Of a stretch of 16,945 nt of DNA, positions 1 through 16,945 are shown one piece after another. The stretch comes from Synechococcus sp. (lineage in GTDB: Bacteria; Cyanobacteriota; Cyanobacteriia; Thermostichales; PCC-7336), in contig JBFRWN010000005.1 in the NCBI GenBank assembly GCA_051439605.1, positions 1 through 16,945 of the forward strand, read 5' to 3'. The notes under the pieces are model-generated. The model was not told the origin of the DNA and ran no database searches. It saw nothing but the letters and a program-made list of their open reading frames with translations. Position numbers and translations under genes: made by a program. Position 1 is the first letter of the stretch; every line of letters starts with the position of its first letter.

Positions 1-548
1 CTCTATATCCGAGTTTATCCACTATAGATAACTGCCTGTTATTTATGCTCCTCGGCTGAGGTTTGGGCTAGGTGGACTGTTAACTGCCAATTATTTATAC
101 TCCTCAAAGCTGCGGATACACTTGGAGTTATCGAATGCTGGTTCGAGCGGATGGGCTCGCTAGGCGCGTCAATTAGCTAATGCATCGATATTGACGCTGG
201 AGACCAATATCAATGGATAGCTCGCGGCCGGTACCTCCCGTAAATCTGATTCCCCTAAGTGGCAATCTGCAAAAGATAGCGACCAAAGTTGCTACGGCAT
301 GGTTTAGATTCCTTGGCTAACGGGTACCACTTCGGACCTAGGGCAGATATTGGCAAAGGCTAGCTCGTAAGGAATTGAGCTATTTGTGACTAACCGGAAG
401 CGCTACCTACCCCTGAACAACGCCGAATTTACTGATTGCTGGTTCCATGAATGGTTACAGCTCCTGACTTTCAGGCCTCTCCACAAAAGCCGCAAGAATC
501 AGATTTATCAAAACCTCAGCTAGCGATTAGCCTTAAACGTTCACTCCG

Positions 549-2333: not shown

Positions 2334-2584
2334 CCTAGGACATGCAACTGAGATTGCCCATGGTGGTGAAAAAACCGCGCTCCAAGTTCCCCGCTCGAAA
2401 ACCCAGCCATCGCCAGCATCGAACCACACGCCAAACGCTCACCTTTGTCATACCCAATCCCCCTTGTCCCAGTAAGGCTTAAAAGCTATCCGAACAGTAT
2501 TGGAACGTGTCACACGCAACGATCCTCGGGGTTTTTGCATATCCCTCGAAAAGGTATAGTTCAGTCACCGACTGATCGCTCATT

Positions 2585-2613
2585 AGTTCGCGATTAGGTA
2601 AGGATTGCGAACT
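2585..2613. other. res-like/recombinase-binding palindrome 1
   Basis: AGTTCGC-N15-GCGAACT, followed by an extra AGTTCGC half-site at 2615-2621. Confidence 0.5.
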
Positions 2614-2727
2614 GAGTTCGCATTTATAATGCATCGGGCATCATGAATGGAAAGTCTTCAAACCCCTTGCCTGTCTTACTTTGAGTGCTGTCGATAGTGT
2701 TTGGCTTCTTACACGATATGGGTTTGA

Positions 2728-2756
2728 AGTTCGCCTTTCCACGTGGATTACGAACT
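2728..2756. other. res-like/recombinase-binding palindrome 2
   Basis: AGTTCGC-N15-ACGAACT; same 29-bp length and same GGATT before the right arm as site 1. Confidence 0.5.
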
Positions 2757-2918
2757 CATCTCGAGGTAAAACTAGCATCTCCTGTTTCAGCACAGGGAGC
2801 AACGGACACTGTTGCCTTAGAGACCGGCTGAAGCCTTGATATCAGGGCATTTCAGCGACTATTGCTTCACCGCATATCTGCTGAATTAAACTTTTTCGGG
2901 GGATATGCAAAAAAAACC

Positions 2919-3017
2919 AATAAAGGGTTGATCCTGGTATTCTCAGATACCCTCTCTGGATCACCAAAACCTGACAAGAGCCCGAAGCTAGGTGAATATG
3001 AAATTAAACAAGCGTGA
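2919..3017 (+). pseudogene. 3' remnant of a cassette ORF truncated at the Tn3-like element
   Basis: Open frame NKGLILVFSDTLSGSPKPDKSPKLGEYEIKQA* starts at the right IR and stops 23 bp before attC 3041. Confidence 0.4.
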
Positions 3018-3040
3018 GACCTGAGTTCTAACACCTGAAC

Positions 3041-3097
3041 GCCTAACAACTCGTCGAAGCGCCATATCTGCAGGCCGCTTAGCCATCGACATTTGGC
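3041..3097 (+). other. attC site (degenerate R')
   Basis: R'' GCCTAAC, arms AAGCG...CGCTT, R' ATTTGGC; 57 bp; first 21 nt are 20/21 identical to attC at 3516. Confidence 0.8.
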
Positions 3098-3118
3098 GAC
3101 TTATCGAGCGAATTCACC

Positions 3119-3508
3119 ATGAGACCACATATCACACTTATCACTCTCGGAGTGCAGGACCTGAACTGTTCAATCGAGTTCTACGAACAGGGGCTAGGCT
3201 TTCCCCGCAAAGAGGGGCCCGAAGGGATCGCATTCTTCGAGACCACAGGCACAATGCTGTCTCTATACCCTAGAGACAAGCTCGCAGAAGACATCACAAT
3301 ATCTCCAGACGGTACTGGCTTTCAGGGATTCACGCTCGCGCACAACGTTGCGTCGCCAGAAGAAGTGGATCGCACACTTGAAGAAGCCGTCGCGGCCGGT
3401 GGTGAGCTGGTAAAGCCGGGCCAAAAGGTATTCTGGGGCGGCTATTCAGGCTATTTTCGGGACCCAGATGGGTTTTATTGGGAAGTCGCACACAATCCGT
3501 TCCTATGA
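3119..3508 (+). CDS. VOC/glyoxalase family protein (gene cassette)
   Basis: ITLITLGVQDL..SIEFYEQGLG, TLAHNV..PEEVD, VFWGGYSGYFRDPDGFYWEVAHNP motifs; flanked by attC sites. Confidence 0.92.
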   Translation: MRPHITLITLGVQDLNCSIEFYEQGLGFPRKEGPEGIAFFETTGTMLSLYPRDKLAEDITISPDGTGFQGFTLAHNVASPEEVDRTLEEAVAAGGELVKPGQKVFWGGYSGYFRDPDGFYWEVAHNPFL

Positions 3509-3515
3509 GTGCGTC

Positions 3516-3582
3516 GCCTAACAACTCGTTGAAGCGGACCGTCTAAGTAGGCACGTCTTTGGCTTTCGCCAATGCCGCGCCT
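3516..3582 (+). other. attC site, right arm deleted
   Basis: R'' GCCTAAC, then AACTCGTTGAAGCGGAC and central hairpin AGGCACGTCTTTGGC-TTTC-GCCAATGCCGCGCCT, fused directly to a transposase fragment; no L' or R'. Confidence 0.8.
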
Positions 3583-3959
3583 GCCCACCATGTAAGGCAT
3601 CACGAAGTCGGGGCGTAACTGATACACCTGGTTGGTGGCGCATAATCGGATGCGACGCATGCGTAGGTCCAGCTTGCGCGAGGTGACAAAGCTATGAAAG
3701 TGGAGCCCCCCTCAAACTGGGCGGGCAATAGCTCGGGGTGCTTCTCCCACAGCTTGACCAGGTAGCAGCGATACGCCGGCGCATCTTCCATCAGCTCCTC
3801 GTAGGTGACTGGATCCTTGACGGGAATGCAGATCGTCTTGTCCCCTCGTTGGGCTGCTGGCATAGTTTCCTGCTTGGCTCACAACGGTTGCGTTACCGTC
3901 TTAGCAGAGGACGCTTGCCACGCCGATTGCCCTCACACCACAGAATCCGTTAGAACCAG
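3583..3959 (-). mobile_element. Truncated, frameshifted unclassified IS (5' end and transposase N-terminus)
   Basis: ORF pieces MPAAQRGDKTICIPV...HPELLP (from 3863) and RRIRLCATNQVYQLRPDFVMPYMVG in different frames; terminus CTGGTTCTAACGGATTCT (3959-3942) identical to 16775-16792. Confidence 0.75.
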
Positions 3960-4327
3960 AATTAGCACAGGTCAGAGAAGACCAGGGGCAGGAGGCGCTT
4001 CTGTCCTCGATGCTCGAACCTGAATCTGGATGGGAAGTGTATGCAGCAGAATTAGCTGGGACTGTGGTCGGTTTTGTATCGGTGCAACTCAATCCAGACA
4101 CACATGTTGGAGAGATCGGACTCAATGCAGTTCACCCAGCTTATTCAGGTAGGGGGGTTGGCACGGCAATGTACAACTTCGCGATCTCTCGAATGAAAGA
4201 AGTAGGCATGAGGGTTGCGACAGTCGCGACAGGCTGAGATCCGAGCCATACCCCAGCACGTCGTGCTTATAAAAAGGCAGGCTTTGCAGTAGAAATGTCC
4301 AGTATTTGGATGTGTCGCACACTTTAA
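3959..4327 (+). pseudogene. GNAT N-acetyltransferase cassette, 5'-truncated and with a nonsense codon
   Basis: Frame ELAQVREDQ...AVHPAYSGRGVGTAMY...VATG*DPSHTPARRAYKKAGF...RTL*; GNAT motifs A and B; in-frame TGA at 4235-4237. Confidence 0.85.
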
Positions 4328-4465
4328 TCCTTGGTGAGTCTGACAAATTCCTCTGCTAAGTTTAGAGCAATGCTACTTGGCTAAGCATTAGCCTGTCTTA
4401 TGCCCTAATCCGAACGAATCATTCGTCGAGTACGTTGGGTCGGAGGCATCTATCGATCTGGTATT

Positions 4466-4554
4466 GCCCAACCCGGCACTGGAGTGGACTTGATTGATCG
4501 CGCTGCGGTCACTTATTAAATCCCAGCGCTCCACTCAGTTTGAAGATGTTATGT
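4466..4554 (+). other. attC site
   Basis: R'' GCCCAAC, CTGGAGTGGA pairs with TCCACTCAG (one bulged base), R' GTTATGT; 89 bp. Confidence 0.8.
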
Positions 4555-4569
4555 GGCTTACGCACGGTA

Positions 4570-5232
4570 ATGGATCCCGAGTCTTACGATCGGTGGTACT
4601 CGACTCCGCGCGGCCAATGGATTGGAAAACGCGAGGCTGAGTTGATTCTTAAGTATCTTCGACCTCGTCCAGGAGAATCGCTACTCGACGTTGGCTGTGG
4701 GACAGGCTTCTTTACTCGTGCACTTGGTGCCTCGATAGACGGACAGGTGACAGGTGTCGACATCAACTCGGAGTGGGTAGCGTATGCCCGTCGTCGCGAT
4801 GCAGGAATGGCTTCCTATGAAGTTGCCGATGCTCGCGCGCTTCCGTTCGCCGATGCGAGCTTCGACTTGGTGGTGTCCATTACGGCACTCTGCTTCATTG
4901 AGGAACAGGACGCTGCAGCCCGCGAGATCCTCCGTGTCGCCCGTCGTCGATTCGCGATTGGCTTGCTCAATCGACACAGCCTGCTTTGGTTGCAGAAGGG
5001 TCGGGGCGGCGGCCGCGGAGGCTACCGGGACGCACATTGGCACACGGTGTGCGAAGCCAGACGCCTTTTCCATGACCTGCCCGTTCGGGATCTGCGGGTG
5101 CGCACGGCCATACAGATACCCAGCGGCGGGCAGTTTGCACGATTCGTCGAGCTTGCAATGCCGTCCTCACTTGCAAGTGGCGGATTCATTTTGGTTGTTG
5201 GCGATGTCGCGACGCCAAAGACTGCCACCTAA
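4570..5232 (+). CDS. Class I SAM-dependent methyltransferase (gene cassette)
   Basis: LLDVGCGTG, VTGVDIN, ADARALPFADASFDLV motifs; ATG 4570 preferred because TTG 4540 lies inside the attC; stop TAA within R''. Confidence 0.92.
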   Translation: MDPESYDRWYSTPRGQWIGKREAELILKYLRPRPGESLLDVGCGTGFFTRALGASIDGQVTGVDINSEWVAYARRRDAGMASYEVADARALPFADASFDLVVSITALCFIEEQDAAAREILRVARRRFAIGLLNRHSLLWLQKGRGGGRGGYRDAHWHTVCEARRLFHDLPVRDLRVRTAIQIPSGGQFARFVELAMPSSLASGGFILVVGDVATPKTAT

Positions 5233-5317
5233 CATCACGATGCACGCGGAGCCGCCGACAGCGTGTGTTTTGAATGGAACGATCGCTCCGGCGACCCGGC
5301 GATCGTGAACGTCAGCC
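5227..5317 (+). other. attC site (R' GTC variant)
   Basis: R'' ACCTAAC, TCACGATGCAC..GCCGCCG pairing with CCGGCGAC..GCGATCGTGA, R' GTCAGCC; 91 bp. Confidence 0.85.
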
Positions 5318-5333
5318 TGTAACAATTAGAAAA

Positions 5334-6428
5334 ATGTATCGGTTCTCTGATATCAATATTCGTCTGATGCATGATGACGAGCGCTTGAACGTGCGATCCA
5401 TTGCGCGTCGTGCTTTCCCTTTTGTCGAGTACTGTTTTTTTCAGTGGACGCCGAATGTCCTGGTTGCCGAACGGGGTGGGCAACTGCAAGGAGCGATTGT
5501 GCTCAAGCTTTTCGATCTCCCTCAGAATCGCAAAGGAGGTTCAATCAGCTGGGTGTTCACAGCGCCAGAGGTACGCGGGCAGGGATTGGGACAATGTCTG
5601 GTTGAAGCAGGTCTCGACTTCCTTGAGTGTCAAGGTTGTGATGAGATTCTGGTCAGTGTTGAAGGTTTCAATACTAGCTCTAGTAAGCTATTCGCGACGC
5701 GTGGATTCGGAATTCTGTCGCCAGGAGCGCAATTCCAACGCTATGGGCTAGCGACATTTACAGTGTGGGCACAGCTGTTTCACTACTTTGATGCAGGTTA
5801 CTTCTTGTGGGCACGCCCTTCCCCTCTTGAAGCAGATAGTCCCATCTCGCAGTGGTGGGGCACTATTGCCGCAAATTCCGCGATCGGATTCTTGATGTTG
5901 TGGCGACAGGGTGTTAGCAGAGCTATGGAGCCGATGATGTGGCTAGCTCTTCCGCCAATACTCATTGTGCTGTTTGGTTTGCGTTATCTGGGCATGTGGT
6001 TGGTGGCGTTTAGGCAAGGGCTTAAGGTGCGCTTCCGTGCCTGGGAATCAGGTTTTCCGATCGGCACGGCGATCGTACTAGCCTTTGGAGGGGCAATGTA
6101 CCCGATACCCGGTGGTGTTTATCCCACGACCAACCAATGGCGATATCGAGATTGGCTTCCCAATTTGGGCTGGATGGCATTTGCCGGAACTCTGCCACTA
6201 TTACTCCTGATATGGGGAGTCTGGATACTCTCACAGCTGGACTTACCATCACCATATCTAAGGGCTTGGCTGAACGTCACGCTTAGGTTGGGGAAACCAT
6301 TGATTCTTTTCGATATTGCTATGCCGTTTTTTCCGTTTATTTGCTTCAATGGACGACGCTTGTGGGATTGGAACAAAATCGTCTGGGGACTGATGGCTGC
6401 AGCAGCTATTGCGGTGTGGTTATTTTAG
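5334..6428 (+). CDS. GNAT acetyltransferase fused to a multi-pass membrane domain
   Basis: VFTAPEVRGQGLGQCL (motif A) and NTSSSKLFATRGF (motif B), then several hydrophobic segments; ATG 5334 chosen because 5274 lies inside the attC. Confidence 0.85.
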   Translation: MYRFSDINIRLMHDDERLNVRSIARRAFPFVEYCFFQWTPNVLVAERGGQLQGAIVLKLFDLPQNRKGGSISWVFTAPEVRGQGLGQCLVEAGLDFLECQGCDEILVSVEGFNTSSSKLFATRGFGILSPGAQFQRYGLATFTVWAQLFHYFDAGYFLWARPSPLEADSPISQWWGTIAANSAIGFLMLWRQGVSRAMEPMMWLALPPILIVLFGLRYLGMWLVAFRQGLKVRFRAWESGFPIGTAIVLAFGGAMYPIPGGVYPTTNQWRYRDWLPNLGWMAFAGTLPLLLLIWGVWILSQLDLPSPYLRAWLNVTLRLGKPLILFDIAMPFFPFICFNGRRLWDWNKIVWGLMAAAAIAVWLF

Positions 6429-6480
6429 TGTTTGAGACGATTATCTCGAAAAGATGAATCAAGCGCGATTTCACATCGCC

Positions 6481-6511
6481 GTAAGCCGGGTTGGCGTAAG
6501 GAAACCCGGCA
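6481..6511. repeat. REP-like hairpin
   Basis: GTAA-GCCGGGTT-N10-AACCCGGC; 8-bp perfect stem preceded by a GTAG-like tetramer. Confidence 0.45.
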
Positions 6512-6560
6512 TTTCCTCCTGCTCGGAACTGTGTTTGTTTCTTCTACATCTGCGGTTGCC

Positions 6561-6648
6561 GCCTAACTATCCGGTTGCACCCGATGGAATACGGTCGATC
6601 GGCCAATATAGTGAGATAACCTTCCACGTATGAACCGGTGTGGTAGAA
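6561..6648 (+). other. attC site (degenerate R')
   Basis: R'' GCCTAAC, CCGGTT(G)CA pairs with TGAACCGG with an extrahelical base, inner TGGAA/TTCCA, R' GGTAGAA; 88 bp. Confidence 0.8.
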
Positions 6649-6661
6649 GTCTATCGAAAAT

Positions 6662-7164
6662 ATGAACATTGAAAAAGACATTGCGAACTGGGATGGAAAG
6701 TCGTCAAGTGATATCGAAGCAATTTACAAATGCTATTGTGATGACGAATCTTTTGTATCTAATCTCCTAGACTTGTCCCAGAATACGGAATTACAAAAAG
6801 GTACATCGTGGTTAATGAAACGCTACCTGGAAGACAATCACAGGTTAGGGAAAAATGAGATTGCAAGCTTATTCAAATTACTTTCTAAACTACAGCACTG
6901 GGAAACGAGAATGCACATTCTCCAGTGCATCCCTTACATGCCAATCGGTCGATCTGAAAGAAAATGGTTGAAGCTTTTTTACGGAGGTGTCTTACGGACA
7001 ACAATAAATTTGTGAGAGCATGGGCGTATAACGGATTTTACGTGATTTCTCTTCAGTACCCAGAGTACAAAGAAGAAACGAAGCAGTTTTTTGAAATGGC
7101 AATGAGAGACGAAGCGCCATCAGTGAAGGCCAGAATTCGGAATATCGTAAAAACTGACTTCTAA
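6662..7164 (+). pseudogene. Frameshifted HEAT/ARM-like helical hypothetical protein (gene cassette)
   Basis: ORFs 6662-7015 and 6964-7164 join across A-rich GAAAGAAAATG (~6956-6966); HEAT-like DNNKFVRAWAY and DEAPSVKAR; stop within R'' TTCTAAC. Confidence 0.8.
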
Positions 7165-7191
7165 CAAGCGCACGCATCCGTGGCGTTAGAT
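7159..7191 (+). other. attC site with internal deletion
   Basis: TTCTAAC-AAGCGCACGCATCCGTGGC-GTTAGAT: both core boxes present but only 33 bp long. Confidence 0.7.
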
Positions 7192-8318
7192 AATGTCCTG
7201 ATTCCAAACTTTCGTGTGTAGCAAGAATCTCACTTCATATGATCTGGAGAATCCTTATATAGCGATCCTATGTCATTCGTAGATTACCAATAGTATCATA
7301 ATCAGACTATAGATGCCGAGTGATTACTGGGATGTCCAAGAGCGATCAGATAGAACATATTGATAAGCATGCAGAAGATACGCTAAAGGAGTTAGAGGAG
7401 TTTATTGCAAGCAATCCTGATCCTCGTGAGCTCAAAAGAGCCTTAGCAGTTCGGATGATGATTGAAGGCCTTAGCCGAACTCAGATTCAAACTCTGCTCG
7501 GGGTATCGCTTCCATTTATCAGTAAGTGGAAAGTGCATTTTGCCTTGGGAGGTGTCGAGGCATTGAGATTAGCTCATCGAGGGTCTGAAGGGTATCTTAA
7601 ATTAGAAGAACGTGAAGAAATTATTGAATGGATCAAAAATCAGAACTCTTGGAGCTTGCCAGAACTAGAGAATCATATTGAATGTAATTATAACATCTGT
7701 TTCAAGTCAAAGCAAAGTTACTACGAGCTATATAAAGAGGCAGGGATCAGTTGGAAGAAGTCTCAAAAGAGGAATCCAAAAAGGAACGAGGAAATAGTCA
7801 AAAAAAAACATCAAGAGGTCTGTGAGCTTCTAGAGTCCAATCGAGAAGATATAGAGTCTGGAAGTCTTGTGGTGTATTTGATTGACGAGTGTCATCTCCT
7901 CTGGAGTGATGTTTGCGGTTACGTCTGGGGTCCAAGTGGAGAGCGAATAGAGATCCCGATAGTGAATGAGCGAGAGAGACAAACTTATTATGGTGCAATA
8001 AATTATGCAACCAGGCAGTTTTTTACGCAAGAATATGATGCTGCCAACTCTAAAAACACGGTCTCTTTTATAAAGTACTTTCAATCTGTAAATCCAGAAA
8101 GTAGACATTTAATAATTTGGGATGGAGCGAGCTATCATAAGTACAAAGAGATGAAGGAATATCTAGAGGAAACCAATCAAGGATTAGATATATCTGAATG
8201 GCGTTTGACTTGTAAGTTATTTGCTCCTAATGCGCCAGAACAAAACCCAGTAGAAGATATCTGGTTGAATGCCAAAAACTGGCTCAGGAAGTGTTGGCAT
8301 GGTTTAAGCTCTTTTTCC

Positions 8319-9916
8319 GTAACCGTCCCAGAAGTTGATTAAGCTGCCAATAGTTTTTCATCTCGAGATAATGGGATGAGTAAATTCAAAGATTCAGGAA
8401 TCAAAGATGGAGTCGGTTGCTGCAATCGGGCAGCTCGGCAAGCATGCGTCAGAAAATCAAGAACGTTTCTATTTTGTGCTTTCAACGAGGCCGTCACAGT
8501 CAGCATGCGAGCCACAAACTGACTGCCCGCTTGAGATTGAGAGCCAAAACTGGTGCGACGCCAAATCACTGCCGGTCGCAAAGCTCGCTCCGCTGCATTA
8601 TTGGTCGGTTCTATCCCCGGATGGTAGACAAAGGTCCACAAGGCCGGTTCGACCTTCAATAACTTTCGGCAAGTTCGGACGGTCTTCGCCAGCGGTGTTT
8701 TTTCACCTTTAGCAATGGGCAATGCTGCGGCTTCTTCTAGCTCAGCTTTAAAGCCAGCCCGCAGGTGATTCACGCAGTCAATAAAAGTGGGGTGAGATAG
8801 AGTTCCATCGCGCACCCGATGCCACCACTGAAATAAGCGACGCTCCCGACGCAGCAACGATTCTCCAATCTCTTGAGACGCTCCGCTGCGTTCAGCGAAC
8901 GCTTGCAGGTCTCGTTTGAGGTGAGCCCAGCACAGTTGCCATTGGTCCAGCTCAATCCAGCCGTAAGCACTGTAGCGGTCCGAGATGACAATGCCCGCAA
9001 ACGTTTCGCCAATCAGGGCCTTGGCTGTAGCTTGAGAGCGGCTCAACACCACTTCAAAAAAGCTCACCATCGGCGTCACCAATACCCACAACCAGCCTTT
9101 AGTGCCCTTCGGATTGAGCCCGTCTCGATTGCCTTGGGGGAAGCCCGTTTCATCGCAATTCAGCATCGCTTGCACCTGCACGTAGCTCTTAGCTGCTGTC
9201 ACTGCCTCACTCACTGCTGCACTCATTTCCTGCCGCAGCCGACCTACCCCACCCCGAGAGACTTGGACTCCAAACAATTCCTGCATTAGATGACAGACTT
9301 GTCGATGACTCTGACGGTAGGTCCCACTCAATAACGCCACTACAGCCGTTAAGCGCTCCCCATACCCAAATGGCGACACTCCGGCTGGCAAGCTGGCTTG
9401 GGTGACACAACTGCAATGCTCGCAGCTCAATTGATGCAGACGATACTCCGTTACTCTCGGCACAATTGGCGGTAACTCTATCACTTGATGCCGATGGGGA
9501 TGGCGATCTCGTCCACTCAGCTGCGCTCCACACCCACTACAGACTTCTGGCACCACTTCATGGACTGCGTCGCAACATTCGAATGGCAACAGCTTACGGG
9601 CTTGGCGGGATTGCTTCGAGGGGGGTCCCTTTTTCCTCTGCTTCTGCTGGTTTTTCCCTTTCGTTTGCTTGCCAAATCCATCACTGGAAGGGGGCTTCGA
9701 TGAATTCTGGGAATTTTGATTCAGCTTCTCTTCCAACTGCGATAGACGTTCACTCAACACCAGCACCAATGCTTGCACGCTTGGGGGAGTTGCATCCCAA
9801 TCAGCTTTCGGTATTTTGATGCCGGCAATTTTTATCTCTTCGCTCATGGGTTCAACCTAGCTGAACAGAGACGTAAAAATACCTAATTCTTACTTAAAAC
9901 TTTGAGGGACGCTTAC
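8319..9916 (-). mobile_element. IS66-family element, single-ORF (ISBst12-group-like), 1598 bp
   Basis: IRs GTAACCGTCCCAGAAGTT / GTAAGCGTCCCTCAAAGTT; perfect 8-bp TSD CTTTTTCC at 8311-8318 and 9917-9924. Confidence 0.95.
8339..9847 (-). CDS. IS66 family transposase (TnpC-like)
   Basis: NSQNSSKPPSSD, Zn-finger CSGC/CEHC, DETG, SDRYSAY, QLCWAHLKRD, PTNNAAERALRPAV motifs; intact 502 aa. Confidence 0.96.
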   Translation of the reverse strand: MSEEIKIAGIKIPKADWDATPPSVQALVLVLSERLSQLEEKLNQNSQNSSKPPSSDGFGKQTKGKNQQKQRKKGPPSKQSRQARKLLPFECCDAVHEVVPEVCSGCGAQLSGRDRHPHRHQVIELPPIVPRVTEYRLHQLSCEHCSCVTQASLPAGVSPFGYGERLTAVVALLSGTYRQSHRQVCHLMQELFGVQVSRGGVGRLRQEMSAAVSEAVTAAKSYVQVQAMLNCDETGFPQGNRDGLNPKGTKGWLWVLVTPMVSFFEVVLSRSQATAKALIGETFAGIVISDRYSAYGWIELDQWQLCWAHLKRDLQAFAERSGASQEIGESLLRRERRLFQWWHRVRDGTLSHPTFIDCVNHLRAGFKAELEEAAALPIAKGEKTPLAKTVRTCRKLLKVEPALWTFVYHPGIEPTNNAAERALRPAVIWRRTSFGSQSQAGSQFVARMLTVTASLKAQNRNVLDFLTHACRAARLQQPTPSLIPESLNLLIPLSRDEKLLAA

Positions 9917-10003
9917 CTTTTTCCTTGGTCAGGTGGTTCTTTAGTTTTCTGATAGAAGGGCAGTTTTATGATTTTCCAAAACTTTACAAGTATGGCTCAT
10001 TTA

Positions 10004-10152
10004 GAAAGTGTCAGAACTGAGATCTCATTGTCAATAAGCCTAGAACAATTGAAAATAGAGCCAATAGTTTGACGAGAAAACAAGGGTTTCAGCTCCCTTG
10101 GCTAATAAGATTCTCAATTAAAAAAGTACGAGATCCCAGTTCTGACACTTTC
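10004..10152. mobile_element. MITE, 149 bp, 23-bp terminal inverted repeats
   Basis: GAAAGTGTCAGAACTGAGATCTC (10004-10026) vs reverse complement of 10130-10152, 22/23 identical; flanks CTCATTTA / CTCTTGTA (6/8, possible decayed TSD). Confidence 0.8.
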
Positions 10153-10940
10153 CTCTTGTAGAGCCTCGTCTCACAAACCAAATCGGTAGCTGGTTAAATC
10201 CAATGAAATTGTGAAACTGCAAGATCCAGGGTACATAAATCATTATATACAGAATCAGCCATGAATATGCTGCTTAAGACTTTACGTAAGAAGATAACAA
10301 CAACTTTGTACCAAATTTATAAGAAATAAGACTCAATTTATAGTTTCAATGTATATTAAAATTCCTTACGTGTAGTTATTTTGCAATCAATGTACGCTAG
10401 TTGATTGCAGCACGTTCATGATACAACCATGGAGACCCTAAGTTCAGTTGAAAATCAATCCTACTGAGCCTGAATATATGTAGCTATTGCTACTAATTTT
10501 AGCTCTTGTAATGGCTTCTTGCCATCTCTAGTAGCCGCCAAGATGTATCAAGTTAGGATTAGAAGCCTTGATATGGATATGACAACGGGGCTATCTCCCC
10601 CAAATTAGACCGCAATTAAGAGTTTCGTTTTGGATAGGAAACTTTCTTCTTTGGAGTAAACAGTCTGTAAATACTATCGACCTCTAGATAGTAAACCTCC
10701 TCCATAAAGATTATGGTGGGACACTGAAGAGTTTTGATTAGACTCTCTTTCTCTGTGCAGCATAGATATCTCTGTCTAAAGCACAGAAACTAGAAACATT
10801 TTGAAACTTTTTTAATTGGAACATCAAATCTATTTTGAAAGACACCTATTACAAATATTATGAAATTCTGATGATCGGTTGCTCGTCTAAGCATGACCTT
10901 ATCTTGTTTCCGAACAAGCAAAAACTAAGTTGACTTTCGT

Positions 10941-11450
10941 ATGGGTAAGGAGACTTCTCTCGTGAAAAGCTTAAGTGTCAATGCAGAAGAAAATGCCTCT
11001 AAACTAAAGCGGCAGCATTATCCTAAATCGCCAACAGATAAAAAAATATTTCACCTGTCTTTGTCAACCTTAAATATAGATGATACTCGCGAGTTCTACG
11101 AGTCGAATTTTGGCTGCAAGGTCAGGCGGATAACCAAAAGCAAGAAAGGAATGCATATCGACTTCTTTGGCCATCAGTTGACTTTTGTTGAAGTACCTCC
11201 TTCAAAACATCGACAAATTAGCGAGACAAACGAACACGGATCTCCTTTAGTTCATTTTGGAGTGGCTCTGCCCTACTATCAATGGTTCGCAATTAAAGAA
11301 CGTTTGATCGGAAATCAGGTTGATTTCTGTGTCCAGCCTCACTTGAAATTCAAGGGTGAACCCCACGAGCACTATGTTATGTTCGCTAAAGATCCGTCCG
11401 GTAATGCTCTTGAAATCAAGAGTTTCACCAATACCAGCGATTGGCTGTAG
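10941..11450 (+). CDS. VOC/glyoxalase (extradiol dioxygenase-like) family protein
   Basis: FHLSL..REFYE..FGC, IDFFGHQL, HFGVAL, MFAKDPSGNALEIK motifs; start uncertain. Confidence 0.88.
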   Translation: MGKETSLVKSLSVNAEENASKLKRQHYPKSPTDKKIFHLSLSTLNIDDTREFYESNFGCKVRRITKSKKGMHIDFFGHQLTFVEVPPSKHRQISETNEHGSPLVHFGVALPYYQWFAIKERLIGNQVDFCVQPHLKFKGEPHEHYVMFAKDPSGNALEIKSFTNTSDWL

Positions 11451-11464
11451 GCGAGCGCAATCTG

Positions 11465-12010
11465 TTAAGTGGACTTCTGGCAAAGAAATGTATTCCTCTT
11501 GAAATAGCTCAGCAGCTGGGGCCATGACTCAAATCCCTGAAACTGGCATTGAAAGGGCTTAGTCATTGTGCGATTTGAATAACTGATGAATACCAGGCTT
11601 TGTTGTCGTAGGTCATTGGTCGATCTGAAATTCCCGCAGCGGGTTAAACGTTGCAAAATACTGAACCAAAACTCAATTTGATTGAGCCGGTATGTGTGTT
11701 TGGGAATCATCGACTAGACAGTTCCAACCGTCGTGTTGGACCGTTTCGATGGTATAGGTCCGGTCATTGGAAAAGTCAGGCTCCTTGCGAGTGGCTCCCA
11801 ACGAGGGAGCCACTACCTAAACCAGCGCACCTACCAAATGGCGATCAAGATGAGGGTGCCGTAGCACTCGTACTCTTACTCCGTCCGTTGCAGTTGCGGC
11901 ACTCTCATCGCTTGGTCTGGATGGAGTCACTCGAGCACTTGAATGCTTGCCATCTCGTAGAAATAGGTACGGACAAAATTGGATCGACACTTGAGAACTG
12001 ATTGATTATC
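11465..12010 (-). pseudogene. Degraded IS630-family transposase
   Basis: Pieces EMASIQVLE*LHP..EYECYGTLILIA and PKHTYRLNQIEFWFSIL..GNFRSTNDL..NRTMTKPF with stops, frameshifts and an internal deletion; boundaries approximate. Confidence 0.8.
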
Positions 12011-12024
12011 TTCAGGACCGTGCA

Positions 12025-12867
12025 TTAGGAGGCAGAAAAAGCTTGCCAAGCTTTGAAGAAAGTAAACGCCGAGAGGAGCAACATCAATCCGCGAAAGATG
12101 AGGCTCACTACGCGATTGGATAGTTTTGGCAAGAACCGCACTCCCAATTGTGCCCCCAGCAATCCTCCCAATCCCACAGCAATTCCGGCAGACCAAATCA
12201 CATTGCCGCGAAATGCGTGACCGGTGGTATTGAATAGGGACGTGAGGACAATAGCCCCCAAACTTGTTTGGATAGCGACTTTGATCGGCTCGTTCAGGAG
12301 CAGAATTTGTAAGGGAACCATAATCACTCCTCCCCCGACGCCGAACAGTCCCGCCATCAGCCCTGCGGTTCCACCAGTTGCAAGTCGGGCGATCGCCGGG
12401 AAGCGATTGTCAGTGGATAATGTTTCCGATGGGGCTTGGTTAACCCATTCATGAGTAGCTTTGGAGATCGCCTGTTTTTTCAGGGAGATCAAGTAGACGT
12501 TGAGCAATAGCAACAGTGCGAAGCCTGTTAGAAGCAAGTATTCAGGAATCACATCGCTGGCGAGAAAAACCCCCAGTTGACCGGCAATGGCCGCCAGAAT
12601 CCCCAACGGCATCACTTTTGCGATTGCGAGATTTCCCGTCCTCCAATTGCGCAGGCTGCCCGAGGTGGCAGTCAGAAAAATCGCAAGATTGCTGGTGGCA
12701 GTGGCGAAAAGCCCTGGTAAGCCTGTTGCCACCAACATTGGCACAACCAACGTGCCCCCTCCAATGCCGAGTAACCCCGCAACCATCCCAGCTACGATAC
12801 CACCGGCGATCCAAATTAAGATTGTCCCAATTTCCACAGCAACCACTCCACACAATGCCCATTTCAA
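12025..12867 (-). CDS. Sulfite exporter TauE/SafE family membrane protein
   Basis: Two repeats AGLLGIGGGTLVVP / AGLFGVGGGVIMVP, ATATS / AIQTSL, many TM segments; true start may be GTG ~12837. Confidence 0.92.
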   Translation of the reverse strand: MKWALCGVVAVEIGTILIWIAGGIVAGMVAGLLGIGGGTLVVPMLVATGLPGLFATATSNLAIFLTATSGSLRNWRTGNLAIAKVMPLGILAAIAGQLGVFLASDVIPEYLLLTGFALLLLLNVYLISLKKQAISKATHEWVNQAPSETLSTDNRFPAIARLATGGTAGLMAGLFGVGGGVIMVPLQILLLNEPIKVAIQTSLGAIVLTSLFNTTGHAFRGNVIWSAGIAVGLGGLLGAQLGVRFLPKLSNRVVSLIFRGLMLLLSAFTFFKAWQAFSAS

Positions 12868-13402
12868 AGGAAGCTAACAACTGCCAAACTTGCTGGCAAG
12901 ATTGAACTCTCATAGGATAAAAGCTTCAATACGAGTCAGACAAGAATTAGAATATTTGAAGATGAGAGGTTATCCTCCTGACCGACGAAGCAAAAAAGTA
13001 CTAGAGAAGACGTTTAATCAGAAACAGAAGAGAATGCATTTCCAATTCTGTCTATATTGAGAATGAATCATGGGATTCGTGTCAATCAATAGCCCTCAAG
13101 TTGGAGGGCGGGATCAGCCCAACCAAACTGATAATATCTTTTCTAAGAGAGCGACGAGTTTCTCCATTTAAGAACTAACAGAGAATATTTCCCTGCTTCT
13201 TACTGCAACACTTCTCCTCAACCAAACTTTACCCCGCAAATAAATTAACCCCTCCCACTTAGGTATAGAAGTTTTGAGATATCACTATAATCTTGCAGTA
13301 TAGTCTAGAGGGTTTTATTCTACATGATGGCAGCAAAATATTATTGAGAAAAGCTTAATCTTCGTAAAAGATCGGTGGATATACATAGGCAGAGATGTCT
13401 AC

Positions 13403-13418
13403 TGTAATACTAAATACA
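13403..13418. promoter_or_regulatory. Candidate NtcA binding site
   Basis: TGTA-ATACTAAA-TACA matches GTA-N8-TAC with the extended T/A, ~210 bp upstream of the gabD-like gene; hexamer 22 nt downstream (TATTTC) is not a perfect TAN3T. Confidence 0.5.
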
Positions 13419-13627
13419 AAATACTCGTTGGATTGTTGCTATTTCTCATTTTGAGATGTTTTTGCCGTCTCCAAGAAGATTCAATTTACTTGATACAATG
13501 CTTAGCTTTGGAGGCCTAAGGTCAGTTGTTTTTTGTACTAAGGAACGTTAATGATTGAAGTCTACTAGAGTACGCAACCCTCTGAATAAATAGCTCTGGC
13601 ACATGCCATTGGATAAAGGAGATTTCT

Positions 13628-15133
13628 ATGGAAACAGTGAAGGAAGTGAATCGAGTTGAGGCGGTTGCCATTGCTCAGCCCCAACTCCTGGAACGAAAGC
13701 TCTACGTTGACGGTCAGTGGTTGGATGCGGAAGGAGGACGCACTTTTGAGGTCCGCAATCCCGCGACAGGAGAGCCGATTGCCGCTGTCGCAGATGCTGG
13801 AGGGGCTGAAACACAACAGGCGATCGCCGCTGCCCGCAATGCCTTCACAGCATGGGCTGCGACACCAGCCAAAGAAAGGGGCGAGCAGCTCAAAGCCGTT
13901 CAGAGCATCTTGCAAGAGCGTGTGGATGACATTGCCCAGTTAATGGTGCTCGAGAATGGCAAACCCCTGGCAGAAGCAAAAGGGGAGGTGGGGTTCTCGC
14001 TTGGGTATTTCAGCTGGTTTGCAGAGGAAGCTCGTCGGGCTTACGGCAAACTCGTCCCCTCTCCATTTGCCAACAAGCGGTTGTGGGTGCAATCTCAACC
14101 GTTAGGTGTGGTGGGAGCCATTACCCCCTGGAACTTCCCGGCAGCGATGGTGGTGCGCAAGATTGCACCGGCTCTTGCTGCGGGCTGCACGGTCGTGCTC
14201 AAACCAGCAGAGGATACCCCCCTGACCGCGCTAGCGATTGCGCGAGCCTGTCACGATGCAGGACTGCCACCAGGAGTTTTTAATGTTGTGACCGGAGCGA
14301 ATCCCCGTCCGATCTCGGCTGAAATGCTTGATAATCCCGCAGTCAAGAAAATTGGCTTTACGGGTTCCACCGAAGTCGGCAAAGTCCTCATGGAGCTAGC
14401 GGCTAAATCGATCAAGCGCGTCTCCTTCGAGCTGGGTGGAAATGCACCCTTCATTGTGTTTGAGGATGCCGATCTCGACGCTGCTGTGGCAGGTGCGATC
14501 GCCATCAAGTTCCTGCGAGTGGGTGGACAATCTTGTATTTGTGCCAATCGGATTTACGTACAAGAGAGCATCGCCGAGCGCTTCATAACTGCTTTCATCG
14601 AGAAAGCTAAAGACCTCAAGCTCGGGCCAGGATTTGGGCCGGGGATACAAGTGGGTCCCCTGATTAACGAGCGGGCGCGGCAAAAAGTGAACGCTTTGGT
14701 GGAAGACGCTGTGTCGCGGGGGGCAAAGGTCGCTCTGGGCGCTCGTGCTGTAAACGATGGCATTTTGGCCGGAGGCTCTTTCTATGCCCCTACCGTCCTG
14801 CTCAATGTCGAAGATAGTTGGCCGATTTGCCAGGAAGAGATTTTCGGCCCTGTAGCACCCATCATGACGTTTAAGTCGGAAATGGAAGCAATCTCCCGGG
14901 CAAACGATACAACCTACGGTCTGGCTGGCTACCTGTACACGCGTGACTTGGGGCGAGTCATTCGCGTGTCAGAAGCCCTCGAATACGGATTAATAGGGGT
15001 GAACGATGCGGCGGGATACACACACGAAATTCCCTTCGGCGGGTTTAAGGAATCTGGTTTAGGTCGCGAAGGAGGCAAAGAAGGGTTGGAGGCATATATG
15101 GAAACTAAATCCGTTGTCGTAAATCTCTCATAG
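13628..15133 (+). CDS. gabD: NAD(P)-dependent succinate-semialdehyde dehydrogenase-like aldehyde dehydrogenase
   Basis: ITPWNFP, KPAEDTP, FTGSTEVGK, ELGGNAPFIVF, GQSCICANR, EEIFGP, PFGGFKESGLGREG; RBS AAGGAG; exact substrate not determinable. Confidence 0.85.
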   Translation: METVKEVNRVEAVAIAQPQLLERKLYVDGQWLDAEGGRTFEVRNPATGEPIAAVADAGGAETQQAIAAARNAFTAWAATPAKERGEQLKAVQSILQERVDDIAQLMVLENGKPLAEAKGEVGFSLGYFSWFAEEARRAYGKLVPSPFANKRLWVQSQPLGVVGAITPWNFPAAMVVRKIAPALAAGCTVVLKPAEDTPLTALAIARACHDAGLPPGVFNVVTGANPRPISAEMLDNPAVKKIGFTGSTEVGKVLMELAAKSIKRVSFELGGNAPFIVFEDADLDAAVAGAIAIKFLRVGGQSCICANRIYVQESIAERFITAFIEKAKDLKLGPGFGPGIQVGPLINERARQKVNALVEDAVSRGAKVALGARAVNDGILAGGSFYAPTVLLNVEDSWPICQEEIFGPVAPIMTFKSEMEAISRANDTTYGLAGYLYTRDLGRVIRVSEALEYGLIGVNDAAGYTHEIPFGGFKESGLGREGGKEGLEAYMETKSVVVNLS

Positions 15134-15138
15134 GTAGC

Positions 15139-15182
15139 TGAGGAGGATTGCAATTTTTCCGAATAGTTTGCAATCCTCCTCA
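15139..15182 (+). terminator. Strong hairpin after gabD-like gene
   Basis: Perfect 15-bp IR TGAGGAGGATTGCAA / TTGCAATCCTCCTCA, 14-nt loop, 5 bp after the stop; no U-tract. Confidence 0.65.
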
Positions 15183-15385
15183 CCATCCCTGTTATGTCCC
15201 GCACAACCATTTAGGTTCTCGCTTGTCCCAGGTACGTTCCAAGTTTTTTAAAGTGATATAGTAATCCCACGTATACGTATGGGTGCTTTAACGAGCATAA
15301 GTATATTTTTTCTTGTTAAGTGTTTGCCATGGGCAATTTCAATACGAATGGCCTGCAGTGGAATTGCGGATTGCCACTTTGGAAA

Positions 15386-15715
15386 ATGCCCTCCTTTGAG
15401 ATCGGTACGGTTGAACTCTTGCAGCGATATGCATCTGGGTCGAGAGATTTTACCGGAGTTAAATTAAGCACTGTCTATCTCAGTCAGGCTAGTTTGGTCG
15501 GTATCAACCTGTACGAAGCCGATTTCTTTGAAGTTGCTGCGATTGAAGCGGATTTAAGTCGAGCGAACCTGAGCGGCGCAAACTTGAGCCGTGCTAATCT
15601 TCGGCGTGTCAAGTTGATTGCTCGAGATGGGACTATTGAAAAATTATTTTATCCGGTATTTCCACCAAGTAATAACGCTGATGAGGTACTTATATGGTTG
15701 CAATCATATGCATAA
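15386..15715 (+). CDS. Chimeric ORF: pentapeptide-repeat N-terminus fused to a peroxiredoxin-like C-terminal tail
   Basis: ELLQRYASGSRDF...ADLSRANLSGANLSRANL, then RRVKLIARDGTIEKLFYPVFPPSNNADEVLIWL; stop lies in attC R''. Confidence 0.7.
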   Translation: MPSFEIGTVELLQRYASGSRDFTGVKLSTVYLSQASLVGINLYEADFFEVAAIEADLSRANLSGANLSRANLRRVKLIARDGTIEKLFYPVFPPSNNADEVLIWLQSYA

Positions 15716-15782
15716 CAAGCGCATGGAGGCGGATCAGCAAAGCGCCTAGCGGTTTGCTGACCGCTGATGCGAAGCATTAGGC
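15710..15782 (+). other. attC site (R' ATT variant)
   Basis: R'' GCATAAC, CGCATGGAGGCGG-ATCAGCAAA / TTTGCTGA-CCGCTGATGCG, R' ATTAGGC; 73 bp. Confidence 0.9.
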
Positions 15783-15826
15783 GTTTTTGAATAACCAGCG
15801 TAATATCAGACAGAATTGATATTGAT

Positions 15827-16489
15827 ATGGATGAAGATGCACTGTTTAAAGTACTAAATCGACAAACTAAAGCAACTTTGCTTGATTTTTTACACTCGGC
15901 ATATTACGTAAAGAATACTCAACAAAGACGTCATATATTTGGCGACCTGATGAAGGAGTCTAAGCCATCAAAAGCTGTAGCGAATGATATTATAAAAGAA
16001 TAAAAAACTTCTATAAAAACTCATTGCTGGTTTATACTATGCGCCTTTTGATATTAATTCTAAGAACTTTTCTCATATTCCTGAAGAAACAGAGGAATGG
16101 TTTGAGAAGCTCGGAAATCTTTTACAAGAGAGCACTCAACTAACAAACCGGAAAGAACATAAATCTGCAGTAGAATCTTTCAAGATTCTCTATGAGCTGA
16201 TAGCAAAAATGGAATATGTTGAAGAAATTATCTTTGCTGATGAATATGGGAGTTGGATGATTCCTGGTAATGAACAGGAATTCCTTGATGCTTATATTTC
16301 GTCATTGTCTGAGATTAAAACACCAGATGAATATACAAAAATAGTGATACCTTTGATAAAAAGAGATAGCTATTCATCATTTTCAATAAAGTCCATTCAC
16401 TAGCAATAGAGCATAGTAATAAGGAGCAAGAAAAATCTTTAATGGAGGCAATCAAAGAACAAAACATTAAGATTAAATCAAGTCGATAG
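15827..16489 (+). pseudogene. AT-rich hypothetical cassette gene with multiple frameshifts
   Basis: MDEDALFKVLNRQTK...DIIKE* then YYAPFDINSKNFSHIPEETEEWF...FADEYGSWMIPG...RDSYSSFS and a shifted tail ...EQNIKIKSSR*; fills the space between two attC sites. Confidence 0.8.
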
Positions 16490-16498
16490 CTCAAAGAC

Positions 16499-16590
16499 GC
16501 CTAACAAGCGCTTGCACACGGAACGGCAGTATATACTATATTTTGTGTCGCAGGCTCCATTTTTGTCCGGTGAAGCGCAGTCCGTTATGC
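16499..16590 (+). other. attC site (canonical)
   Basis: R'' GCCTAAC, GCGCTT(G)CAC(A)CGGA pairs with TCCGGTGAAGCGC with two extrahelical bases, R' GTTATGC; 92 bp. Confidence 0.93.
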
Positions 16591-16686
16591 AGCATAAGCT
16601 GCTTATGGGACAGAAGCTTGAAGATGATTGGCGATTCTAAAACGAATTGAGTTAGTCTAATCAAGTTCATCGTTTAGGCTCTTTAT

Positions 16687-16774
16687 ATGCTTAGAGAAAT
16701 TGATAGAGATATTTGGGTTGCCGAACAGCCATTACGATATTTTGGCCTCAATGTTGGGACAAGAATGACTATAA
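16687..16774 (+). pseudogene. DUF4336-like protein N-terminus, interrupted by IS
   Basis: MLREIDRDIWVAEQPLRYFGLNVGTRMTI, resembling the DUF4336 start, ends at the IS terminus. Confidence 0.7.
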
Positions 16775-16945
16775 CTGGTTCTAACGGATTCTATGGCACC
16801 AATGTATAGTGCGGCACCAATGGCTATTTGATAGATCTAGCTTGTCGTGGATGAGTCGCCGATCGTGCCTGCAGCCAAACGGGGAGACAAGAGCATCTGT
16901 ATCCCGGTCGAGAGTGAAGGCCAGTATCAGAACTTGATGGAGAAT
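16775..16945 (+). mobile_element. Unclassified IS, 5' end and transposase start (GTG 16865, runs off window)
   Basis: Terminus CTGGTTCTAACGGATTCT; (M)PAAKRGDKSICIPVESEGQYQNLMEN is 17/27 identical to the ORF starting at 3863. Confidence 0.8.

Follow-up and report, generated by a model that had tools for sequence, protein, structure and literature searches.

Two probable integron cassette array fragments, six and two attC sites long, on a contig of a Synechococcus genome

Introduction

The integron integrase IntI acts on attC sites in the form of their folded bottom strand and recombines them at a GTT core. CALINs are described as at least two heterogeneous attC sites on the same strand, with one gene between sites and no intI nearby (PMC4889954, PMC9024848). 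Half of them lie in genomes that carry intI elsewhere and 38% have insertion sequences as neighbors, and the action of IntI in trans is a listed route to their formation (PMC4889954), while draft assemblies inflate their counts (PMC9024848). Integrons of cyanobacteria have also been published, in surveys of 2007-2008 (PMC2426708), in the IntegronFinder survey (PMC4889954) and with an attC model of their own (PMC8352920). An initial annotation of the DNA studied here, which called them little described in this phylum, was right only in that no paper devoted to them was found in the literature searched. The searches also listed no functional study of a cyanobacterial IntI.

The window, a stretch of 16,945 nucleotides that makes up a whole contig (C5) of a draft Synechococcus genome, resembles CALINs in its heterogeneous sites on the same strand with one gene between sites, in an intI elsewhere in the genome and in insertion sequence neighbors; no intI lies on the assembled contig, and the cluster size is near the reported mean of 5 to 6. 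It differs in that the locus counts as two elements by the 4-kb clustering rule, its sites are more decayed than those of G002, a complete genome of the same genus, and the remnant of one cassette has become joined to a host gene. With the chromosomal integrons of cyanobacteria (Nemergut 2008, PMC2426708; Ghaly 2021, PMC8352920, PMC9176274), it shares the host phylum, sites recognized by a model built from cyanobacteria and, at the genome level, frequent intI pseudogenes (about one third; PMC2426708). Unlike these integrons, the window shows no intI or attI and no promoter-like match upstream of the array.

Results

attC sites and their decay

The window was reported to hold eight attC-like palindromes on the + strand. 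An R''-type heptamer is present on this strand at all eight positions, and each is matched by R1, a covariance model of 21 attC sites adjoining intI genes in other cyanobacterial genomes, none from the genome of the window. With filters off, R1 returns 18 matches in the window at E ≤ 10; the eight sites are eight of the top nine, all with the bottom strand folded, and the best score on the opposite strand is 7.5 bits. Five sites reach E < 0.001, three in a left cluster and two in a right one. The three damaged sites at 3516, 7159 and 3041 (E 0.11 to 0.37) lack significance on their own, which counts against the best explanation given below, and are outranked by a match of 14.2 bits at 14068-14107 within an aldehyde dehydrogenase gene. 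R1 is small, and G002 supplied 10 of its 21 training sequences; a low score is therefore in part a measure of how far a site lies from those sequences. The modeled structure covaries among the training sites: both partners vary in 15 of 21 pairs, and none of 500 shuffles reaches the covariation score. A strict hand-made pattern (intact GTT, fixed spacers) detected four sites across the genome, all outside the window, and was superseded by a looser scan and the covariance model.

All sites lie on the + strand. In the left cluster, attC 1 (3041..3097; 10.9 bits, E 0.37) is degenerate, has ATT as its R' triplet and lacks any remaining upstream gene of its own; its left half shares 95% identity over 22 nt with attC 2 (3516..3583; 12.9 bits). 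Of the latter only the left half remains: where it meets a transposase fragment, L' and R' are missing, and the fragment, with homology extending to 3580-3584, takes the place of the right arm. attC 3 (4466..4554; 21.7 bits, E 5e-4) has an intact AAC/GTT core and 5/8-nt spacers, and its bottom strand folds with a z score of -2.0. It is followed by attC 4 (5227..5317; 26.4 bits, E 3e-5) and attC 5 (6561..6648; 21.7 bits, E 5e-4), in which R' reads GTC and GGT, respectively, and by attC 6 (7159..7191; 12.6 bits), reduced by an internal deletion to 33 bp that keep both R boxes and a short hairpin (z -3.5) but not the L arm. The right cluster consists of attC 7 (15710..15782; R' ATT; 27.7 bits, E 1e-5; z -3.1) and attC 8 (16499..16590), the best site of the window (35.2 bits, E 1e-7). 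Overall, the core is intact at three of eight sites (4466, 7159 and 16499), changed at four and lost at one. At 4466, 5227, 6561, 15710 and 16499, the R1 alignments show an imperfect palindrome of R''-L''...L'-R' layout whose bottom strand folds with extrahelical bases; free folding of these five gives z scores of -0.2 to -3.1, energy alone being weak evidence.

CGATCG hexamers occur three times in attC 4 and attC 5, and seven times in the cassette DNA against 2.0 expected. Erosion of attC sites driven by HIP1 is not supported as a general cause, since the genome's 23 other sites, 1948 bp in all, contain only two CGATCG.

Layout of the locus and its flanks

The sites form two clusters, with six sites at 3041-7191 and two at 15710-16590. 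The 8.5 kb between 7191 and 15710 hold an IS630 element, an IS66 element and host-type genes, with no R1 site above 14.2 bits. We therefore rejected the single eight-site array, alternating with single ORFs, of the initial annotation; its classification as a CALIN or remnant applies to each cluster separately, as the 4-kb rule holds within each cluster and a 10-kb threshold would merge both.

No intI adjoins the sites, as a complete integron would require. The best tblastn match to intI on the contig has an E value of 0.56, where the assembled flanks span just 3.0 kb upstream and 0.35 kb downstream. A profile of 26 intI-upstream regions gives no hit in the window at E ≤ 1, while six other contigs match it, among them C88, C31, C96, C43 and C16. 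These searches reject an intI trace or attI platform within the window, as already noted in the initial annotation. No sigma-70-like cassette promoter was matched in 2300-3150, which is a weak test, and among 40 relatives region 2334-2924 has two short weak matches only.

The genome is split into 143 contigs, one of them (16.9 kb) being the window in full; another (C7) begins inside an intI gene, and inflated CALIN counts are a known property of drafts (PMC9024848), so that a complete integron might have been split, with its intI just past a contig end. We consider this very unlikely. The intI would be expected upstream of attC 1, where 3 kb are assembled with a SWIM-finger gene and no trace of intI or attI, and one contig spans 18-6032. 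Moreover, the C7 start and both ends of the window share no sequence, and the right contig end is downstream of the array, inside an insertion sequence.

Insertion sequences and host-type genes

The 5' end remnant of an ISL3-family element (2925..3003, - strand) lies directly upstream of attC 1, overlaps the first codons of the ISL3 transposase and has 13 matches at 81 to 86% in G002. Whatever preceded the array, be it a first gene, attI or intI, is gone. Within the left cluster, the 5' fragment of an insertion sequence of unassigned family (3584..3959, - strand) ends in an inverted match to 16775-16796; its G002 homologue has no NCBIfam match. The left cluster is followed by an IS630-family element (7257..9997; PF13358) with an IS66-family insert (8331-9916; PF03050). 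Both have G002 copies and neither is a cassette; their nesting is seen in contig ends and the joint 8310-9917. Beyond attC 8, the 5' end of a second element of the unassigned family (16775..16945, + strand) is 91% identical to two G002 copies, and the contig ends inside it. A recent composite transposon between the inverted ends at 3959 and 16775 was rejected, since the two are 72% versus 91% identical to the G002 element and show no mutual match in a window-versus-genome BLAST.

The host-type block (10941..15133) contains a second VOC gene, a TauE exporter and the aldehyde dehydrogenase, with three HIP1 sites and a paralogue on contig C27. These are not cassettes: the VOC gene and the dehydrogenase adjoin in G002, with no attC hit at E ≤ 0.1 across 19.9 kb there.

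The cyanobacterial host inferred initially is borne out by psaA/psaB-family genes in the genome and a 51-fold enrichment of HIP1. Given an estimated contamination of 4.1% and a SWIM-finger gene whose query was unmatched in three of three same-genus genomes, the contig could have been mis-binned from a non-cyanobacterial genome, or the palindromes could be products of chance. Such readings are largely refuted and extremely improbable. The non-cassette genes carry four HIP1 octamers; DNA identity to same-genus genomes is 66 to 83% for IS630, IS66, TauE and the dehydrogenase; and five sites at E < 0.001 argue against chance. Read depth is even over cassettes and host-type genes and equal to that of a cassette copy on contig C6, although the run is possibly the source of the assembly and would then check the assembly only.

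Cassette genes

Six cassettes were delineated, all on the + strand, with three intact and three broken ORFs. The first intact gene is a VOC/glyoxalase-family gene (3119..3508, 129 aa; PF00903, E 2e-18). Among its 40 best metagenome relatives tested, two lie between full attC hits; the closest do not, which weighs against the best explanation given below, and one relative (L096, 88%) retains a similar left half-site. A role as fosfomycin-resistance gene was rejected (18 to 23 bits versus cut-offs of 171 to 280), and no cassette gene reaches the cut-off of a resistance family. Next comes a GNAT acetyltransferase pseudogene (3960..4327; PF00583, E 4e-12), cut at its 5' end by the insertion sequence and interrupted by an internal in-frame stop. 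It precedes an intact class I SAM methyltransferase (4570..5232, 220 aa; PF08241) and an intact gene (5334..6428, 364 aa) with a GNAT domain (PF00583, E 3e-11) and a C-terminal half that reads as hydrophobic. The last gene of the left cluster is split over two frames (6662..7164, 40% GC; weak HEAT-repeat match). In the right cluster, a chimeric ORF (15320..15715, + strand) joins in frame a host-type pentapeptide-repeat N-terminus (PF00805), with a paralogue on C27, to a tail of ~35 residues from the end of a peroxiredoxin/redoxin gene (50 to 58% to such proteins among the 15 matches listed). The final cassette (15777..16590, 35% GC), of unknown function, is broken by three single-base gaps.

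ORFs of at least 50 aa stop inside R'' at three sites (5227, 7159 and 15710), one fewer than first claimed; at 3516 and 6561, the frames that run open into R'' have 35 and 45 codons and do not represent the cassette genes. The cassette DNA has no HIP1 octamer in 4698 bp versus 4.0 expected (P 0.017), and its GC content ranges from 35 to 59%.

The proposed integron cassette architecture is upheld by the R1 matches and by homology that starts at the crossover. Two of the six cassettes are units bounded by the G/TT crossover in differing array contexts, in two independent comparisons. The methyltransferase shares 73% protein identity with a gene (L078) between two attC sites of a deltaproteobacterial MAG, in an array of seven attC hits; this cassette is thus common to a cyanobacterium and a deltaproteobacterial genome. 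The cassette at 15777-16590 has an intact 221-aa copy on C6, behind a different attC-like sequence, with 90.5% identity over 814 nt, homology from the TT of the core site and a dN/dS of 0.21. Two separate captures may fit these copies as well as movement within the genome. Joints skipping a whole cassette were absent from the assembled contigs of four of nine runs; contigs drop rare variants, and this result is silent on excision. No RNA run was listed as carrying sequence of 2900-7300.

Integrases and attC decay elsewhere in the genus

The genome-wide search located intI homologues on three other contigs and none on that of the window: the first carries a stop codon, the second is truncated by the end of its contig and the third is a fragment. 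In the sole full-length intI, codon 22 is a stop and the second catalytic His is replaced by Arg. The C7 gene is open over all 258 codons present, with RHSFATH, LLGH and YTHV motifs, and the contig starts inside it. Its intact catalytic motifs, cut only by the contig start, make a working integrase possible and weigh against the best explanation.

The clusters could have been built in place by an IntI in trans, at secondary sites or resident attC sites, with cassette exchange with the other arrays of the genome perhaps continuing and insertion sequences arriving later. We regard this reading as possible but rather unlikely. It draws on the open C7 frame, on the core kept at 4466 and 16499, on a cassette shared by the window and C6 at equal read depth behind different upstream sites, and on its being a listed route to CALINs (PMC4889954). 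However, no adjacent sites both keep GTT, half of the cassette ORFs are broken, and the 9.5% divergence and dN/dS of the two copies imply that any move was not recent.

Decay is genome-wide, as 12 of the 23 sites outside this contig have a changed core. It is intact at 13 of 28 sites in this genome versus 33 of 46 in G002 (Fisher P 0.047), a comparison of two genomes only, with a model biased towards G002. The latter has 16 attC clusters, 11 with at least two sites, and three intI remnants were found there, none intact. Outside the two main intI-linked arrays of G002, only five of 13 loci match the four transposase queries used, so that the evidence for splitting by insertion sequences does not extend to all of them, a point against the best explanation. 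Among the 41 nearest relatives, 20 have an intI over the cut-off, versus 23 of 401 genomes drawn across the phylum, which suggests that intI is unevenly distributed over cyanobacteria.

Discussion

The best explanation, which has good probability, is that this cyanobacterial contig carries two integron cassette array fragments (CALINs), one with six attC sites and the other with two. The locus is an ordinary example of a known element type, namely worn cassette remains without a nearby recombinase. It appears to be a relic and not a hotspot, because no adjacent pair of sites both has the GTT core and three of six cassette ORFs are broken. The active acquisition hotspot initially proposed is not supported in view of the missing attI and the lack of a promoter-like match upstream either.

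On this best explanation, an integron integrase would have captured the cassettes singly, at least some of them from a cross-phylum environmental pool, as shown for the methyltransferase. Since the window sites vary in length and sequence, in contrast to the uniform type beside intI in G002, they suggest cassettes of mixed foreign origin. Insertion sequences would then have severed the array from its intI/attI platform and left it among host genes, a step inferred because their ends lie at three of four cluster borders and within the array. Sites and genes would have decayed afterwards, the excision of single cassettes was probably lost, and the intact genes may be passive or weakly expressed passengers. 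We infer the order of capture, severing and decay.

The cassettes could instead have been domesticated, with the loss of attC cores selected since useful genes are thereby locked in place. Behind each of the three intact genes, the R' of the next site is broken or lost, while the three broken genes each precede a site with an intact core; this split, noticed post hoc, is 1 in 20 by simple counting. Together with the new open ORF formed by fusion of a cassette remnant and a host pentapeptide gene, it makes domestication conceivable, though quite improbable. If true, the integron would persist in the genus as scattered integrase-dead clusters, such as the 11 multi-site clusters of G002, supplying fixed foreign genes.

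As two decayed array fragments, the locus is of modest importance. It adds a further case to the decayed CALINs of cyanobacteria, whose integrons are known but seldom investigated. Given the uneven distribution of intI suggested above, this lineage is a sensible place for testing cyanobacterial IntI.

Host and genomic setting

The genome of the window, G000 (4.90 Mb in 143 contigs), contains two full-length PsaA/PsaB-family matches, and the HIP1 octamer occurs in it 4221 times, a 51-fold enrichment. The host is therefore a cyanobacterium, as the initial annotation had suggested. The window carries four HIP1 octamers, located in its SWIM, TauE and dehydrogenase genes. DNA identity with same-genus genomes is 66 to 83% for IS630, IS66, dehydrogenase and TauE. 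By sequence, contig C5, which the window covers in full, is assigned to this cyanobacterial genome. Mis-binning of the contig is improbable, as is a split introduced by the assembly. Read depth is 29 to 38 in every bin from 566 to 15820 and a single contig covers positions 18-6032 in a run that is possibly the assembly source, so both serve as a check on the assembly, not as independent support. The datasets listed as containing the window sequence are marine sediment metagenomes.

The left flank may itself be accessory DNA, because the SWIM zinc-finger gene (549-2333), used as query, has no match in three of three same-genus genomes; one same-family genome gives a 33% match. Upstream of the array, 33-nt inverted repeats (2532-2564 and 2881-2913; 88% complementary, 316 nt between) have no further copy in the genome and only weakly match, over 46 nt, one site in a same-family genome.

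Two clusters of attC sites

A strict attC pattern search recovered 0/8 of the window sites, and a looser scan found well-formed sites adjoining integron integrase (intI) genes in related genomes. A covariance model, with R and L pairings fixed by hand, was trained on 21 attC from the looser scan, 10 from G002 (a complete same-genus genome) and none from G000. In this set, 15 of 21 pairs are altered on both sides, and the set pairing pairs 86% of cells versus 24 to 41% in slid controls. The eight named sites are eight of the top nine model matches in the window, all with the bottom strand folded. Five (4466, 5227, 6561, 15710 and 16499) reach E<0.001. The other three of the eight sites originally proposed are damaged, with E values of 0.11 to 0.37, and are outscored by a match within the dehydrogenase gene: the right half of 3516 is replaced by a transposase fragment, 7159 is reduced by deletion to 33 bp and 3041 carries several substitutions.

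The GTT of the R' box is the crossover point, and efficient recombination requires it. It is altered at four window sites, and the core is kept only at 4466, 7159 and 16499, none adjacent to another. That core loss was under selection, fixing useful cassettes, is improbable, the idea being based on six cassettes and a post hoc pattern.

The sites do not form the single array first described. Six fall within 3041-7191 and the other two within 15710-16590, separated by an IS630 with a nested IS66, then a VOC gene, TauE and an aldehyde dehydrogenase. The VOC and dehydrogenase genes adjoin each other in G002, where the model gave no attC match at E<=0.1 in the surrounding 19.9 kb. Paralogues of the dehydrogenase and pentapeptide genes stand side by side on contig C27. 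The right cluster opens with a chimeric ORF (15320-15715), a pentapeptide-repeat start in frame with a peroxiredoxin-like tail, which appears to be a host gene with a cassette-derived tail. It is one of three ORFs, rather than the four claimed, whose stop codon lies within R''.

Of the four cluster borders, three have an IS end, as does the interior of the array, and an ISL3 end lies 40 bp upstream of the first attC. The 5' end of one IS family occurs at 3584-3959 and again at 16775-16945; this family gave no NCBIfam match via its G002 homologue and no Pfam match as window fragments. Four further contigs terminate in related sequence.

Cassette genes

Segment 15777-16587 has a 90.5% identical copy on contig C6. 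The homology begins at the core-site TT and stops in the next attC, and the upstream sequences are unlike. The C6 copy is an intact ORF (221 aa), and the window copy carries three single-base gaps. A dN/dS of 0.21 shows that the copies diverged mostly while working genes, and is thus equally compatible with two separate captures and with a single move. Three relatives of the methyltransferase were found in 185,579 genomes, the best (73% identity) in a deltaproteobacterial MAG, directly flanked by two attC matches in an array of seven. Here too DNA homology starts at the core site, and this one cassette is common to two phyla. The window genes are accordingly read, from sequence, as true integron cassettes. 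Evidence to the contrary comes from the VOC gene of the left cluster: of its 80 retrieved relatives the best 40 were tested, and only 2 have full attC matches, although an 88% relative retains a similar left half-site.

Cassette DNA (GC 35 to 59%) contains no HIP1 octamer in 4698 bp, versus 4.0 expected. At 4587-6601, CGATCG hexamers number seven versus 2.0 expected, with the full octamer absent, possibly reflecting early amelioration towards the host. Three of six cassette ORFs are intact and three broken. With the core kept at three of eight sites, this speaks against the proposed gene-acquisition hotspot. Cassette architecture and the decay of sites and genes are both evident in the window.

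Integrase and attI platform

The window lacks intI (best tblastn E 0.56) and any match to a platform profile built from 26 regions upstream of intI genes, which matches six other contigs; on this point the first reading stood. Genome-wide, intI was found at three loci. On C88 it is full length and two attC sites adjoin, with a stop at codon 22 and the second catalytic His changed to Arg; on C7 the frame is open and the motifs intact, the first 57 codons lying beyond the contig start; on C61 it is a fragment. C88:1837-5282 (L001, L087) has a complete integron layout of two attC, platform and intI pseudogene. It is possibly carried by a plasmid or ICE, because the adjoining ORF resembles a conjugative coupling protein. 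The profile also matches attI-platform-like sequence without intI at C31:3127-3394 and C16:39621-39840, both near attC, at C96:27173-27389 and on C43.

The cassettes would have been captured by IntI at an attI no longer present, the array separated through IS action, and the cassettes would now be immobile. The main rival is that IntI acting in trans, possibly from the C7 copy, assembled the clusters in place.

Integrons in relatives and in the published record

The window holds two decayed CALIN fragments, which belong to a kind of element already known; the initial annotation was largely right and overstated unity, activity and novelty. Although integrons had been called little described in cyanobacteria, passages of PMC2426708, PMC4889954, PMC8618304, PMC8352920 and PMC9176274 cover the phylum. 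The first places it among six phyla bearing intI, with about one-third of intI genes pseudogenes. PMC4889954, the source of the CALIN definition, records cyanobacterial integrons, with half of CALINs in genomes having intI elsewhere and 38% adjoining an IS. The phylum is included in a list in PMC8618304 and has an attC model in PMC8352920 and PMC9176274 (at least 51 sites per model). Passages elsewhere note that draft genomes inflate CALIN counts (PMC9024848) and include a Synechococcus IntI (PMC3108266). Our literature search found no paper devoted to cyanobacterial integrons. With G000 included in both counts, 20 of the 41 nearest relatives have an intI above the family cut-off, as do 23 of 401 genomes from across the phylum (at most five candidates scored per genome in this wider set).

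In G002, a cassette body of ~90 bp, below typical gene size, recurs more than 20 times (78 to 100% identity), often in tandem with a 176- to 180-bp period and near-identical attC sites (L061:9218-9845; L062:4399-4758 and 10340-10785; L177, L178, L181, L183, L184). All copies inspected contain a HIP1-type word, pointing to cassettes made by the host, either "empty" or regulatory. This cassette was not found in G000.

The model gave at least 24 matches on at least 11 contigs of G000 (150 of 1097 candidates scored), with the core altered in 12 of 23 sites examined outside the window. Among three other same-genus genomes, one (85% complete) had no match. The attC sites of G002 fall into 16 clusters, 11 of them multi-site, and its intI genes carry frameshifts, are split or survive only as a fragment. 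In both genomes, then, arrays are typically dispersed and in decay.
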